A DNA stretch of 63,078 nucleotides, the filler included, from Reclinomonas americana ATCC 50394 (Eukaryota): NCBI GenBank assembly GCA_048213135.1. It is 18 parts of 18 records of this genome, joined end to end, with 100 filler letters (N's around TTAATTAATTAA, not from the genome) between each part and the next. Parts side by side here need not be neighbours in the genome. Positions count along the whole stretch, not along the records: positions 21,323 to 22,872 come from AFZH01021188.1; positions 22,973 to 24,293 come from AFZH01021189.1; positions 24,394 to 27,678 come from AFZH01021190.1; 15 more parts are not named here. One strand, written 5' to 3'. A program made the position numbers and the translations under genes. Positions 21,323 through 26,187 of the stretch are shown piece by piece (within the stretch, counting starts at the first letter, position 1; the number at the start of each line of letters is the position of its first letter). The notes beneath the pieces were generated by a model. It saw only the letters and a program-made list of their open reading frames with translations, did not search any database and had not been told where the DNA came from.

Positions 21323-21800
21323 TGTGCCGGGCGCATAGTTCACGCCCTGCCGCCCGTCCGTGATGAATGCACGCAGCTTGCTCGTGTCGCACTGTGTGTA
21401 TCCACATGGAGTTTAGAGGCACTCCAGCAGAGCAGAGGAGTGGGGCGAGAAGAACCTCGGCAGACTCTGGATCCGGCGGGCCGACGACCACCAAGAACGG
21501 CATCAGGCCGTGCTCACTGACCATGGGCACAAACGCCTGACTGCCCAACGGATGCCGCTCCATAATCTCAATGCGCATCGGCAACTGGCGCGGCTGGGCG
21601 CGGAAAATCGACAGCAGAGTGCGACCGCGACCCACCTCCGGATGCACCTCCACCGCCGGCGCCACATTGTGAAAGCGCGTGGTGGTGCCGGCATTGATCG
21701 GGTACGTGCGCTCGGCATTCTCCGGCTCAATCACATCCCCAAACGCCGCAAATGCCTCGCGACTGAGAGGCTCCACAGGAAGCACGATGCGAGAGCTCAT
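21323..21800 (-). CDS. allA: Ureidoglycolate lyase (AllA/DAL3 family; 3' end in gap)
   Basis: VEPLSREAFAAFGDVIE, INAGTTTRFH, SIFRAQPRQLP, MERHPLGSQAFVPM, FLVVV, then after one intron LRAFITDGRQGVNYAPGT: all hallmark AllA motifs. Confidence 0.93.
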
Positions 21801-21866
21801 GACAACAACAACAAAATGACAAAGTCGACGGACAGACGGACTTCACACACAGCTTGCGTTGATAAC

Positions 21867-23957
21867 ATGGCTTCCTCGTCTTCTTCTTCTTCTTCTCCCA
21901 GTGTGCTTGCCGAGGGGCGACGCACACTGATGATTCCGGGTCCGATTGAGTTCGATGAGGATGTGCTGATGGGCGGTGTGCGTCTCGGCGGCACCTCGCA
22001 TGTGGATGCAGGCTTCATTCGAGTGTTTGGCAAGTGTCTGACACAGATGGCACGTGCGACGTGAGAGAGCACAAGAGAGAGAGACAAAAGGTCAAGTCTG
22101 ATGATTTGTGATTGCATCTCGAGCAGCGCGATGTGTTTCTGGCAGCCGACGGTCAGCCGTTTGTTATCACGGGCTCCGGAAGTCTCGGGTGGGACTCGAT
22201 TGCGTCGAATGTGGTGGAGGCTGGCGACAAGGTGTTGGTGGTGAATACAGGGTGAGTGTCGCCACAATAGAGCTCCATTGTCACCACCGCACACTCACAC
22301 CCGCTGCGCTGCGGTGTTGCAGGTACTTTGGTGACAGGTGAGTCGTCTCGTCTTGCATTGTGCGCTCTGTCTATAGCAAAGCTGAGATGTTGACGCTGTG
22401 TGCAGCTTTGGCGATTGCCTCGAGGTGTGCAATTGCAGCGCTGGTGGTGTATGTTGTTTTTTCCCTTACACGTAGAGGTGCATACGCAGACGTATGGTGC
22501 AGCGGTGGTTCATGCGCGTGCCGAGGCTGGTGTTGGCGGGGTGCCGTCGCTGGCACTTGTGCGCCAGTTGCTGGAGACGGAGGGTCCGTTCAAGATGATC
22601 ACCGTCACGCATGTGGACACGTCGACTGGTGTGCGCACGGACCCGAAGGCGATTGCCGAGTTGGTGCAGGCGGTGTCGCCCGATACGCTGGTGGCTGTCG
22701 ATGGAGGTGAGTGCGCGACTTTCTGCCCGTGCACAGCGCGCGCGTACTCATTCTGGTGTGTGTGTGTGTGTGTGTGTGTGTGTGTGTGTGTGTGTGTGTG
22801 TGTGTGTGTGTGTGTGTGTGTGTGTGTGTGTGTGTGTGTGTGTGTGTGTGTGTGTGTGTGTGTGTGTGTCGTNNNNNNNNNNNNNNNNNNNNNNNNNNNN
22901 NNNNNNNNNNNNNNNNTTAATTAATTAANNNNNNNNNNNNNNNNNNNNNNNNNNNNNNNNNNNNNNNNNNNNCGTCGTCGTCGTCGTCGCGCGCGCGCGA
23001 CGTCGTCGTCGTGTGTGTGTGTGTGTGTGTGTGTGTGTGTGTGTGTGTGTGTGTGTGTGTGTGTGTGTGTGTGTGTGTGTGTGTGTGTGTGTGTGTGTGT
23101 GTGTGTGTGTGTGTGTGTGTGTGTGTGACAGTGTGCTCCATTGGTGGCGAGGAGCTGCGCATGCAAGAGTGGGGCGTGGATATGGCCATGACCGGCTCGC
23201 AAAAGTTCCATTGCCGCACTCTGCCTCGTTCGCTTGCGTCACCGTGCTGAACACGCCCGCAGATGCATCGGTGTGCCGCCTGGCCTGTGCCTGCTGATGG
23301 TTCGTCCGCGGGCCTTGCAGGCACGCACCGCCAAGGGCCGCTGCTCCTCATACTATGCCGACTGGGCACGATGGGAGCCCATCATGAAGGCCTACGAGGC
23401 CGGCACGCCGAGCTACTTTGCCACGCCAGCGGTGAATCTCGTGCAGCAGCTGTCGGTGGGGCTGGACCAGCTGCTGAATGTGGATGGCGGTATCGATCGC
23501 CGCTTTGACGAGCAGCGTCGTGTCGGTCGTGCCATGCGTGCCGCCATTGCTGCGCTCGGTCTGCGCCTGGTGCCCACTGACGCTGCGCATGCGGCCAACA
23601 CGCTGACGTGCGTCTACCTGCCCGACGGACCCGAGAGCGTCACTCTGCCGAACCTGCTGCCGGCGGTGGGAGCGCGCGGAGTCGTTATTGCCGGTGGTCT
23701 GCACAAGGAGATCAAGACGCGCTACTTCCGCATTGGCACCATGGGTTGCGTGCAACCTTGCAGTGTTCTAGTGTGTACATGTGGACAACTAATCATGTGT
23801 GCTCTGTTGTTTGCATCCAGGTCCATCGGCGAGACCGAATTCTGCGCACCCGCGACAGGCTCTGGCCGCTCTGGAGGAGGCTCTTGCTCATTTGGGATAC
23901 AAGGGTGGTTCGGGCGCGGTGGCGGCCTTTGAGGAGAGCATGGGAGCGAGCGAGTGA
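21867..23957 (+). CDS. AGXT: Alanine/serine-glyoxylate aminotransferase (class V PLP enzyme)
   Basis: LMIPGPIEF, SHV, GSGSLGWD, VLVVNTGYFGDSFGDCLETYGA, ITVTHVDTSTGV, VDGVCSIGGEELRMQEWGVD, TGSQK (PLP Lys) CIGVPPGL, SYFATPAV, IAGGLHKEIKTRYFRIGTMG. The intron spanning the gap is phase-compatible. Confidence 0.92.
22757..23127. repeat. Long (GT)n microsatellite in an AGT intron, interrupted by an assembly gap
   Basis: More than 100-nt GT runs on both sides of the linker. Confidence 0.9.
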
Positions 23958-24056
23958 TGAGTGGATTCGGAGGAGCAGAGCGACTCACAAAAAATGGCGT
24001 GTTGCTTTGCAACGTCACACGAGAGATAAAAACTCGTTCATGCGCACGCTCCGACC

Positions 24057-24795
24057 TCAGTCGAGACGGATGTTGCCAGTGGCCGGGTCGCGATACATCA
24101 GCTTGCCCGGGCCCGACGTTTCGACACTCTCCTCCTCTGCAATATCTTTTTCGCTGTCCACGTGCACCAGGCGACCGCGCACGTACGTCTTGTGGATCAC
24201 ACCGTGCACGTGCACATTGTCGAACGGCGAGCGCTTGTGTCGGTGGAACGTGCGCGACGGATCGATGGTGTAGGGCGCATCGGGATCCCACACNNNNNNN
24301 NNNNNNNNNNNNNNNNNNNNNNNNNNNNNNNNNNNNNTTAATTAATTAANNNNNNNNNNNNNNNNNNNNNNNNNNNNNNNNNNNNNNNNNNNNCAGCACG
24401 CGCTCCACAATGCCATCCTCGTTGACCAGCACCGCCGCCGCACGCACGTCATCACTGTCGGTCAGCACGCGACGAGACACGAGTGCAAATGGTCGGATCT
24501 TGCCCTCCGCCACTGGCGACACTTCGACCGTCTCTTCTGCCAAGCGCAGCTCGAAAGTAGGTTCTTCTTTAGGCCTGTCGCCCAGGAGATTCACACTGGT
24601 CATGTGGTCGTGCAGGAGAACCACACTGGCCACTGCCAGCAGAGTCACAAACAGCGCCGGGTGCAGATACCACGCATGACGTGCACTTCGTGTCGTCACC
24701 GCAGTAGTCGTCGCCGTGGCGGTGTTGGTGTTGTTGTTGCTGGCGTTGTTCGCATTGTTGCTGCTGCGTTGCTGCAGCGCAGGTCCCTCGCGCAT
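24057..24795 (-). CDS. Allantoinase (cyclic amidohydrolase); central catalytic part lost in gap 24294-24393
   Basis: N-part LVSRRVLTDSDDVRAAAVLVNEDGIVERV and C-part VWDPDAPYTID..FHRHKRSPF..VHGVIHKTYVRGRLV match allantoinase termini. It sits between allantoicase and AGT. Confidence 0.75.
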
Positions 24796-24877
24796 TGCTT
24801 CGGAACTTAACTTGAGATAATGCAAGCAGGACTGCAGGATCACTGCTCATTCCTCGCTCGTCACTCAAAGCGCAATC

Positions 24878-26187
24878 ATGGAAGGCATTCACGTGTCGGG
24901 AGTGGTGACGGATGAGGTGGCGCAAAAGGTCCCGTGTGTGGTGATCCGCGGTGGCGCCAAGCGCCCGGTTGGCGCGGGCGCAGTGGGTGCGGTTCCGGAG
25001 TGGTTGAGCTCGCGCCCGCTCACCGACTTGGCGGCGGAGCGCACGGGTGGGCGAGTGTTGTTTGCCAGCGACGAGTGGTTTGCCGGCGCCTATCGTCTCA
25101 TGTTGTCGAGCGAGCCCGAGTTCCGTGTGGATGTGTACACGCCGTTCGGCAAGTGGATGGATGGGTGGGAGTCGCGTCGGCGTCGCACCGCCGGTCACGA
25201 TTGGTGCATCTTGGAGCTGGGCATGCCGGGGCGCATTCGCGGCATTGAGATCGACACGGCATTCTTCACGGGAAATCATGCACCGCGCGCCAGTGTGTAC
25301 GCTACGAGCTTGAGTGCCGACGATGAGCGTCTGGCGCCGCTGCGTGGCTGGGGGAAGCGGTGCGGTGTGGCGGCGACGCCGGAGGAATTCGAGCTGGCCA
25401 ATCGCTTGGAGAGTGACAAGTGGGATGAGCTGGTGCCGTTCACTCCGCTCGAGCCGGGCTACGAGGACTCGCGCCGCCAGTTCTTCGAGGTCGACAGCGA
25501 CAAGCGGTACACGCATCTGCGCCTCAACATGTTCCCCGACGGTGGCATTGCGCGCCTTCGTGTGTGGGGCGACGTGGCGGTGCAGTGGCGCGCTGGCGAT
25601 GAGGAAGTGGACCTGGCAGCCGTCGAGTCTGGTGGTGTGGCGCTCGGCTGCAGCGACAAGCACTTTGGCGAGCCGCGCAACCTCATTCAACCCGGCCGCG
25701 GCATCAACATGGGCGACGGATGGGAGACGGCTCGCAAGCTGACGCGGCCGCCGGTGCTGGTCATGGACCAGGCCTCGGGCCTGGTCGTGGCTCCGGGTTC
25801 CGACTGGGCCATCCTCAAGCTCGGCACGACGGGTGTGGTTCGCCGGTTGGTGATCGACACGGCACACTTCAAGGGCAACTACCCGGAGTCGTGCCAGGTG
25901 AGTTCTGTGCTCCAGTTTGATGATGCGCTGACGAGGTCTCATCGGCTGGCGCGCGTGTGGAACAGGTTGATGGCTGCCAGGCGGATACGGACGAGTTGTA
26001 CTTGTTGAATGGCGAGCTTCCGATTTTCAACTGGCGTCCGGTGTTGCCACGCACGCAGCTGCGCGCCGATCACATTCATCACTTTGACGCCGACCCGGAG
26101 GCTGGTCCAATCACCCACCTGCGTCTGACCATGTTCCCCGACGGTGGCATCTCCCGCATTCGCGCCTTTGGCACACCATGCCTGTGA
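24878..26187 (+). CDS. ALLC: Allantoicase (two repeats), single intron 25898-25965
   Basis: GGRVLFASDEWF, GKWMDGWESRRRRTAGHDWCILELG, IDTAFFTGN, THLRLNMFPDGGIARLRVWG, NMGDGWETAR, DWAILKLG, DTAHFKGNYPES, THLRLTMFPDGGISRIRAFG. Confidence 0.96.

Follow-up and report, generated by a model that had tools for sequence, protein, structure and literature searches.

An allantoin-breakdown gene cluster in the protist Reclinomonas americana

An allantoin-breakdown cluster was confirmed in Reclinomonas americana ATCC 50394, in which the genes for ureidoglycolate lyase (UGL), alanine:glyoxylate aminotransferase (AGT), allantoinase (ALN) and allantoicase (ALC) adjoin each other as two head-to-head pairs. 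It is a eukaryotic metabolic gene cluster in the sense of at least three non-paralogous genes of the same pathway lying adjacent in a nuclear genome. By our own estimate, which assumes a gene count of at least 10,000, chance adjacency of four consecutive-step enzymes is negligible (~1e-11). We consider it probable (about 0.72) that this eukaryotic cluster serves the lower half of the purine breakdown pathway and was built within the protist's lineage from genes that differ in origin.

Gene layout and linkage

Within the window (the whole stretch of 63,078 nucleotides that was analysed), the cluster comprises the following features, together with the core of ALN, which lies on unplaced contigs of the genome assembly (G000).

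21323..21800, minus strand: UGL of the AllA/DAL3 type, 182-aa model (exon 1, 21800-21456; 64-nt intron; exon 2, 21391-21323)
21801..21866: head-to-head UGL/AGT spacer, 66 bp (UGL ATG at 21800, minus; AGT ATG at 21867, plus)
21867..23957, plus strand: AGT of the AGX1 type, 416-aa model with 8 exons (21867-22049, 22127-22251, 22323-22337, 22406-22424, 22490-22706, 23132-23204, 23263-23744, 23821-23957)
22873..22972: linker gap in AGT intron 5, (GT)n, closed on haplotype contig C7458
23958..24056: tail-to-tail AGT/ALN spacer, 99 bp (AGT stop at 23957, ALN stop at 24057)
24057..24293, minus strand: ALN C-terminal 78 aa (TIGR03178 positions 384-429, E 3e-6), joining contig C11529 in frame
24294..24393, minus strand: linker gap over the middle of ALN (the core listed next, plus ~125 aa)
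Unplaced contigs C11529 (L020) and C11875 (L019): four exons encoding 243 aa of the ALN core, joining in frame and belonging in gap 24294
24394..24795, minus strand: ALN N-terminal 134 aa (low-complexity tail, hydrophobic segment at residues 43-61, variable stalk, first amidohydrolase-fold strands)
24796..24877: head-to-head ALN/ALC spacer, 82 bp (ALN ATG at 24795, minus; ALC ATG at 24878, plus)
24878..26187, plus strand: ALC, 413-aa model (exons 24878-25897 and 25966-26187)

The start and stop coordinates agree with the genes, strands and distances (66, 99 and 82 bp) given in the initial annotation. The physical linkage it proposed is borne out by the second haplotype scaffold, on which the gene order is identical (two scaffolds and nine contigs in agreement) with spacings of 68, 112 and 72 bp for UGL/AGT, AGT/ALN and ALN/ALC. 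Contig C7458, of this second haplotype, carries UGL, AGT and the 3' end of ALN, and ALC is on the contig that follows, in either haplotype. All four genes contain spliceosomal introns. The description of the cluster as operon-like was nonetheless overstated: because the genes alternate in strand and contain introns, they do not form a polycistron.

An identical 100-base linker fills all 17 gaps in the window, so linker length says nothing of true gap size. The gap at 22873 is artefactual, interrupting a (GT)n intron that C7458 carries unbroken, at 92 bp, but the gap at 24294 conceals at least ~1.35 kb, most of ALN, and only ~212 of ~580 ALN residues are in the window. A third gap, at 21223, removes the last 44 UGL residues. 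The unplaced contigs that supply the ALN core and the UGL tail join the window pieces in frame; contigs numbered beside them gave no match to the window. In the catalytic parts, synonymous codon changes between haplotypes outnumber amino-acid changes (16/2 in AGT, 5/1 in UGL, 13/3 in ALC and 8/3 in the ALN core).

The cluster is flanked by DDB1, an uncharacterised protein (below threshold in an Atlas look-up) and Sel1 repeats, in keeping with the earlier remark that the neighbours are functionally unrelated. Of the remaining ORFs in the window, the 145 with the highest scores gave no match to purine-pathway or permease families.

Enzyme assignments

Profile and structure-family matches upheld all four proposed enzyme identities. 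UGL matched PF04115 along its full length (E 2e-31), with profile positions 3-117 covered by the window and 125-157 by contig C14736, where its last 44 codons follow an in-frame junction (L028:1-135). Together with a match to PDB 2bdr (E 3e-23), this points to an enzyme of the AllA/DAL3 type. ALC contains two PF03561 repeats (E 7e-78) and scores 345 bits against TIGR02961, over the cut-off of 277.9, as predicted for an allantoicase.

The AGT model, which has a GC donor in its first intron and two exons of 15 and 19 nt, could be aligned over its full length with five relatives. It appears to be a fungal AGX1-type alanine:glyoxylate aminotransferase: exons 7 and 5 have yeast AGX1 (PDB 2bkw), the closest characterised relative, as their best match. 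An Atlas look-up returned only the generic class V. The Lys and Asp that we take to serve PLP, and the Arg presumed to bind substrate, are all present. The assembly contains only two AGT copies, one per haplotype.

Neither ALN piece in the window matched Pfam. TIGR03178 nonetheless ranks first for all three ALN fragments, none of which reaches the whole-protein cut-off, and the core exon scores E 1e-22 with the allantoinase model versus 5e-12 and 4e-10 with the dihydropyrimidinase/dihydroorotase models. Identity as a dihydroorotase or dihydropyrimidinase, which would have undone the original assignment, was rejected on this basis. The core and C-terminus share 46% identity with Porphyridium allantoinase (P0121) and 39-43% with the best-matching AllB-like proteins that bacteria encode next to an allantoicase; with three further cyclic amidohydrolases, from bacterial-looking contigs of the assembly, identity is 27-29%. 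Alignment with P0121 and the AllB profile shows that two C-terminal histidines, presumably metal ligands, are present. The catalytic Asp and, two positions after it, a Ser, whose role in allantoinase is described in the available text of PMC13691922, are present as well.

The N-terminal HxH motif, the substrate Asn and the carboxylated Lys would fall in a segment of ~125 residues, including the first metal-binding motif, that was found nowhere in the assembly using TIGR03178, whole and partial P0121, a degenerate pattern and a bacterial AllB segment; these searches gave only bacterial-looking amidohydrolases, and the four matches of the degenerate pattern were unrelated. N-terminal to it lie the hydrophobic segment (hydropathy 2.1) and a stalk that varies between haplotypes while keeping frame. 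ALN may be anchored as a type II membrane protein whose catalytic domain faces the lumen of the ER, as in plants, or of another compartment. Porphyridium P0121 likewise has an N-terminal hydrophobic segment, and plant allantoinase is ER-located according to the portion of PMC13691922 available. By that same source, plants go on with ammonia-releasing amidohydrolases, whereas the cluster has urea-releasing enzymes that lack a signal segment.

Metabolic role and origin

Family membership suggests that ALN would convert allantoin to allantoate, ALC allantoate to ureidoglycolate and urea, UGL ureidoglycolate to glyoxylate and a further urea, and AGT glyoxylate to glycine with alanine as amino donor. 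The upper-pathway genes are dispersed outside the cluster: an intron-bearing uricase with a C-terminal ARL (C9286/C9297), HIU hydrolase (C5/C8) and OHCU decarboxylase (C13). Malate synthase G also lies away from it (C555/C395). Allantoin may be supplied by a peroxisomal uricase, and ALC, UGL and AGT may be cytosolic. Urease gave no match in this fragmented, intron-rich assembly, and urea carboxylase/PF02626 was not found in it either (one search scored 18 of 54 candidates). Since neither was found, urea may be excreted, and on balance we favour a route in which both ureas leave the cell, surplus purine nitrogen is shed and two carbons are saved as glycine. Clustering would probably link the formation of toxic glyoxylate to its removal by way of two shared, putative promoters, though AGT may instead serve general glyoxylate or glycine metabolism. 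The nitrogen-scavenging role implied at the outset is doubtful because no urea-splitting enzyme was found.

GATAA occurs once in each head-to-head spacer (21861-21865 and 24816-24820) and in both spacers of both haplotypes; of 3000 pairs of shuffled spacers, only 10 contained it on both sides. None lies just upstream of HIU hydrolase or OHCU decarboxylase. The UGL/AGT spacer also holds an upstream in-frame ATG at 21816, whose frame is lost on the other haplotype. The spacers had been read as tiny bidirectional promoters; that they are special in this respect was not borne out: head-to-head distances of 97 bp between DDB1 and its neighbour (putative start) and 76 bp between the HIU hydrolase gene and its neighbour show that such short spacers are normal in this genome. 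A GATAA+GCTTGC pair occurs within the window only in the two head-to-head spacers; it was dropped as a motif, having been defined from those spacers themselves and being broken in one haplotype.

The shared GATAA would also suit a true analogue of the Saccharomyces DAL cluster, in which nitrogen starvation, under GATA control, would induce the genes for feeding on allantoin, and either an enzyme that escaped assembly or accompanying bacteria would split the urea. Bacterial contigs are indeed present in the assembly, and in DAL, too, only post-allantoin steps are clustered, as far as PMC13751858 describes in the part available. We think this unlikely. Uricase, malate synthase G and HIU hydrolase, all split by introns, were recovered by the same kind of search that found no urease or urea carboxylase; there is no permease among the 145 ORFs; and uricase is retained, unlike in DAL yeasts. 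Moreover, the alanine:glyoxylate aminotransferase step uses up an amino group and brings in no nitrogen.

As to origin, the cluster appears to be a mosaic rather than a transferred operon, with a eukaryotic ALC, a proteobacteria-like UGL and a membrane-anchored ALN. In a quick, unfinished tree search without fungal rows, ALC fell in a eukaryote clade (SH-aLRT 98) and grouped with stramenopile sequences. The named top UGL matches are all proteobacterial (54-64% identity), and UGL was probably gained by horizontal transfer as a bacterial-type gene and placed beside the glyoxylate sink, as judged from match lists rather than a tree and from a comparison set that held no eukaryotic AllA/DAL3 sequences. 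Among the 48 bacterial loci closest to UGL, alc occurs in 38, AllB in 1 and AGT in none. Full-length alc genes beside the closest bacterial allA are 35-42% identical to the cluster's ALC; this value, the eukaryotic affinity of ALC and the alternating strands led us to reject transfer of a whole bacterial operon. Bacterial contamination was also considered and rejected.

Improbable, in our view, is an old linkage that survives only here, inherited from a stramenopile ancestor, a more inclusive one or a bacterial allB-alc pair. An AllB-like gene does occur in 56 of the 80 metagenome loci closest to ALC, its product ~40% identical to the ALN core, and at least 10 of the 80 have a UGL match. In the loci inspected, however, bacterial allB and alc stand in tandem, not head-to-head, and the Cryptococcus and Aspergillus genes are unclustered in the text available of PMC3646786. 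Three of the 80 loci group with or match eukaryotes (L058, L059, L061). Of these, L058 alone has flanking sequence; its 12.9 kb encode an allantoicase near-identical to Nannochloropsis P0001 but lack all three partner genes. No AGT match was found in any of 128 bacterial or metagenomic loci examined. The proposal of independent assembly is thus upheld in respect of the mixed origin of the genes, while independence from other eukaryotes hangs on one comparison genome. Literature covering few subscription journals yielded no non-fungal eukaryotic allantoin cluster. We offer only tentatively a fuller reading: a first such cluster, of convergent assembly, centred on a bacterial allA that arrived by horizontal transfer and took the place of the malate-synthase-like UGL known from SAR and animals, with a luminal ALN and two GATA-bearing bidirectional promoters, which would shed prey-derived purine nitrogen as urea and save carbon as glycine without nitrogen feeding.

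Because ~125 ALN residues are missing, the contig with the ALN N-terminus and ALC is tied to the rest by scaffolding and a weak match to AllB profile positions 10-36 (E 0.023). Mis-scaffolding, with ALC and the membrane-anchored ORF belonging elsewhere and a three-gene cluster remaining, would fit a gap at 24294 that no sequence fully bridges and a single scaffolding method presumably used for both haplotypes. It is very improbable, given concordant scaffolds over nine contigs, an ORF that is still open where it enters the gap, as its profile position would lead one to expect, the hydrophobic N-terminus shared with Porphyridium and a single eukaryotic ALN core, in two copies, in the assembly. 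Least credible is an aminotransferase of the PucG/HpxJ kind acting on ureidoglycine: PucG-type genes occur in bacterial purine clusters and PucG (3isl) is among the matches (E 5e-5), but yeast AGX1 is far better (2bkw, E 4e-21) and the product of allantoicase is ureidoglycolate, as the original preference for AGT had it.

Comparison with known systems

To our knowledge, primary-metabolism pathway clusters are rare outside fungi, and the DAL cluster is the textbook example of cluster birth through gene relocation. Finding this pathway clustered a second time, in a distantly related host, again without the upper pathway and with a different glyoxylate sink, allows the 'toxic intermediate' explanation to be tested against 'nitrogen scavenging under low oxygen'; the former is favoured because the host keeps uricase and seems to be without urease.

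In the available parts of PMC13751858, PMC3419248 and PMC3646786, the Saccharomyces DAL cluster comprises DAL1, DAL2, DAL3, DAL4, DAL7 and DCG1. As there, equivalents of DAL1, DAL2 and DAL3 (ALN, ALC and an AllA-type UGL) are clustered here with a glyoxylate sink, assembled from separate genes, with the upper pathway and the urea step left out. The sink here is AGT rather than malate synthase (DAL7), equivalents of the permease (DAL4) and racemase (DCG1) are absent among the 145 ORFs, and uricase is kept, whereas DAL hosts lost it. The R. americana cluster further differs in its non-fungal host, membrane-anchored ALN, stramenopile-like ALC (by a tree without fungal rows) and want of any urea-splitting enzyme found. 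The DAL2,3,3 fusion of Cryptococcus also couples allantoicase and ureidoglycolate lyase physically, but it is a protein fusion of Basidiomycota (PMC3646786, as available) and here there are four separate genes. Among protists, the urate pathway of Nephromyces and Cardiosporidium ends in AGXT or malate synthase, and a route from purines through glyoxylate to glycine by AGXT has been proposed; the portion available of this transcriptome-based study reports no UGL and describes no cluster (PMC6320678). Bacterial alc-allA and allB-alc operons and the Bacillus puc and Klebsiella hpx clusters place the same enzymes side by side, but they are co-directional and intronless, whereas the R. americana genes alternate in strand and have introns. 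Their PucG/HpxJ aminotransferases go with the ureidoglycine route. The genomic context of AGT here links AGX1-type aminotransferases to purine catabolism.

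Layout and contiguity of the cluster

The window is made up of 18 short contigs and 17 identical 100-base linkers, which give no true gap sizes, and the cluster is distributed over three contigs of the assembly (C5721, C5722 and C5723). The host is an intron-rich eukaryote, and the window includes a flagellar gene, CFAP77. Gene strands, and spacings of 66, 99 and 82 bp, were as described in the initial annotation:

21323..21800, minus strand, ureidoglycolate lyase (UGL)
21867..23957, plus strand, alanine:glyoxylate aminotransferase (AGT)
24057..24795, minus strand, allantoinase (ALN), with gap 24294-24393 inside
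24878..26187, plus strand, allantoicase (ALC)

A second haplotype, scaffolded from C7457 to C7465, is 96–98% identical and has the same order as window 1-27678. One of its contigs, C7458, carries UGL, AGT and the 3′ end of ALN in one unbroken run, so that the contiguity of these genes is independent of scaffolding and the gap at 22873 reflects no more than the collapse of a 92-bp (GT)n intron. The proposal that both gaps lie inside genes and that the adjacency is real therefore stood for this AGT intron, but only in part for the gap at 24294, which hides most of ALN and was partly bridged. Of ALN, the window contains 134 residues from the N-terminus and 78 from the C-terminus, and neither piece matches Pfam. 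Two unplaced contigs, C11529 and C11875, carry the core; C11529 splices into a 243-residue frame (three introns of 61–65 nt) and meets window 24293 in frame. About 125 residues (profile positions 37–160) were not found in the assembly using TIGR03178, the Porphyridium allantoinase (whole or in part), a degenerate pattern or a bacterial AllB segment as queries; what links ALC to the other genes is thus scaffolding, which agrees in the two haplotypes, together with a match between the N-terminal piece and the AllB profile that is weak (E 0.023) but falls at the right place (positions 10–36). We conclude that the four-gene allantoin cluster is real, with a true length of about 6 kb.

Most codon changes between haplotypes were synonymous; the synonymous/non-synonymous counts were 16/2 for AGT, 5/1 for UGL, 13/3 for ALC and 8/3 for the ALN core, the exception being the ALN N-terminal region (6/12, with 11 gapped codons and the frame intact). 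Behind the ALN membrane segment, ~80 bases of the stalk are almost wholly unlike between haplotypes and in frame (window 24394-24620, minus strand, versus 3060-3150 of the second-haplotype locus L004), a divergence far over the 2–4% background. The assembly also includes bacterial-looking contigs (C1, C2, C4042, C4391, C8278 and C13166), of which C8278 bears a PuuE-OHCU decarboxylase-like fusion and C13166 an HIU hydrolase plus uricase; locus L009 (C7456) is mostly an array of ~200-bp tandem repeats.

Identity and origin of the four genes

All four predicted identities were upheld. Every ALN fragment ranked allantoinase top among the profiles, and core plus tail are 46% identical to the Porphyridium enzyme, with a C-terminal extension common to both. 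ALC scored over the TIGR02961 cut-off, and UGL, whose last 44 residues lie on unplaced C14736 across an in-frame junction, matched PF04115 and solved AllA structures. For AGT (complete model, 416 residues), the closest solved structure was yeast AGX1, favouring AGT over the PucG type. AGT occurs in the assembly as its two haplotype copies only (5 of 5 candidates scored), and a PF00266 search saw no second eukaryotic AGT (11 of 50 scored). Its introns at window 22050, 23205 and 23745 comprise one GC-AG intron and donors GTTCCA and GTTGCG, and it has micro-exons of 15 nt (22323-22337) and 19 nt (22406-22424). A 2092-residue relative, P0246, joins an AGX1-type aminotransferase to a CLU (clustered mitochondria) domain, as a true fusion or a gene-model error.

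Among the best 120 of 7610 UGL matches, every organism-named one was proteobacterial. UGL carries a single intron, and its GC3 of 0.76 resembles that of its neighbours (0.70–0.79), indicating integration in the host genome. A malate-synthase-like UGL group is reported, in the part of PMC10120013 consulted, for animals, Amoebozoa and SAR. A PF01274 search of the assembly (7 of 7 candidates scored) returned malate synthase G only, with no A-type or UGL-type paralogue and no member of that group, and we infer that a bacterial-type UGL took over from the malate-synthase-like one. Tail-to-tail with UGL (27 bp between stops) and head-to-head with DDB1 lies a gene with a predicted coiled-coil tail (window 20137-21222, plus strand, and C14736, minus strand), for which family searches found no family.

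By contrast with the bacterial-type UGL, ALC is eukaryotic. Its best named matches were stramenopile and animal, and in a quick tree of this one gene, built from 75 rows chosen among the matches, it adjoined ochrophyte sequences (SH-aLRT 96; best identity 59%), a mere hint of the host's affinity, and grouped with eukaryotes, separate from 20 bacterial-type rows (SH-aLRT 98). The 48 prokaryotic loci closest to UGL had alc in 38 cases, AllB in one and AGT in none; the 80 metagenome loci closest to ALC had an AllB-like gene in 56, allA in at least 10 and AGT in none. Transfer of a whole operon from bacteria was therefore rejected. Only one eukaryotic allantoicase locus, L058, came with flanking sequence, 1.6 kb on the upstream side and 10 kb on the downstream side, and UGL, AGT and ALN were all absent from it. 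Those bacterial allantoicases that most resemble the eukaryotic type (L060-L137) mostly adjoin an AllB-like gene 37–47% identical to Porphyridium allantoinase, and the two eukaryotic genes may derive anciently from such a pair. Beside ALC, at 106 bp, lie two tandem Sel1-repeat ORFs (window 26294-27678, minus strand).

Spacers, remaining pathway and likely role

The small spacers, initially described as tiny bidirectional promoters, proved ordinary in size for this genome (97 bp between DDB1 and its neighbour, 76 bp at HIU hydrolase). GATA factors control the yeast DAL genes through GATAA. This motif occurs once in each head-to-head spacer (UGL/AGT and ALN/ALC) in both haplotypes, a pairing seen in 10 of 3000 approximate dinucleotide shuffles; three further upstream regions that were checked lack it, as do the stretches immediately before HIU hydrolase and OHCU decarboxylase. 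As a candidate control motif it is a lead, GLN3 dependence being mentioned for DAL in the part of PMC3419248 consulted.

Other pathway genes, all intron-bearing and on other contigs than the cluster:

uricase, C9286/C9297, ending in ARL, upstream side cut off
HIU hydrolase, C5/C8
OHCU decarboxylase, C13
malate synthase G, C555/C395, of bacterial G type in a eukaryote (L056, C555:5000-14000; also C395)

None of the four cluster proteins ends in a typical tripeptide of the PTS1 consensus. Basic residues ahead of a hydrophobic segment are expected to give type II anchor topology, and ALN has such residues before a hydrophobic stretch at 43–61, as expected for a predicted type II anchor. Plant allantoinase is active in the ER (PMC13691922, in part). 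The four reactions, described in the portions consulted of PMC3646786 and PMC6320678, would follow from family membership: urate may be oxidised in the peroxisome and allantoin hydrolysed by ALN in the lumen, two ureas and glyoxylate would be set free in the cytosol, and AGT would convert glyoxylate to glycine at the cost of one amino group.

Most probably the cluster serves to dispose of purine nitrogen, recover carbon and detoxify glyoxylate. That it instead serves nitrogen feeding appears less likely: without a urea-splitting enzyme the gain of purine nitrogen would be nil, and searches of the assembly gave, for urease, no PF00449 match and only weak partial TIGR01792 matches (best E 1e-4) and, for urea carboxylase, no PF02626 candidate and biotin-carboxylase-domain matches only (18 of 54 candidates scored). 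Missing matches in so fragmented an assembly are no proof of absence; other intron-split pathway genes did turn up by the same kind of search.

Comparison with known allantoin clusters

In the main texts of the literature searched, as far as consulted, we found no non-fungal eukaryotic allantoin cluster. The portion seen of a green-algal neighbourhood survey (PMC7826186) mentions allantoin for yeast alone, and those of PMC12541418 and PMC9244630 enumerate purine genes of algae but show no cluster of this kind. A more far-reaching view, held tentatively (probability roughly 0.3), is that this is the first such cluster outside fungi, assembled convergently around a horizontally gained bacterial allA, with GATA-bearing bidirectional promoters and a luminal ALN, and serving urea disposal and glycine saving. 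It would work like the Saccharomyces DAL cluster, as far as the consulted parts of PMC13751858 and PMC3419248 describe it, but is not a member: it contains no malate synthase, permease or racemase, and uricase is kept. It also differs from Cryptococcus, where ALC and UGL are fused (PMC3646786, in part), in having the two as separate genes.
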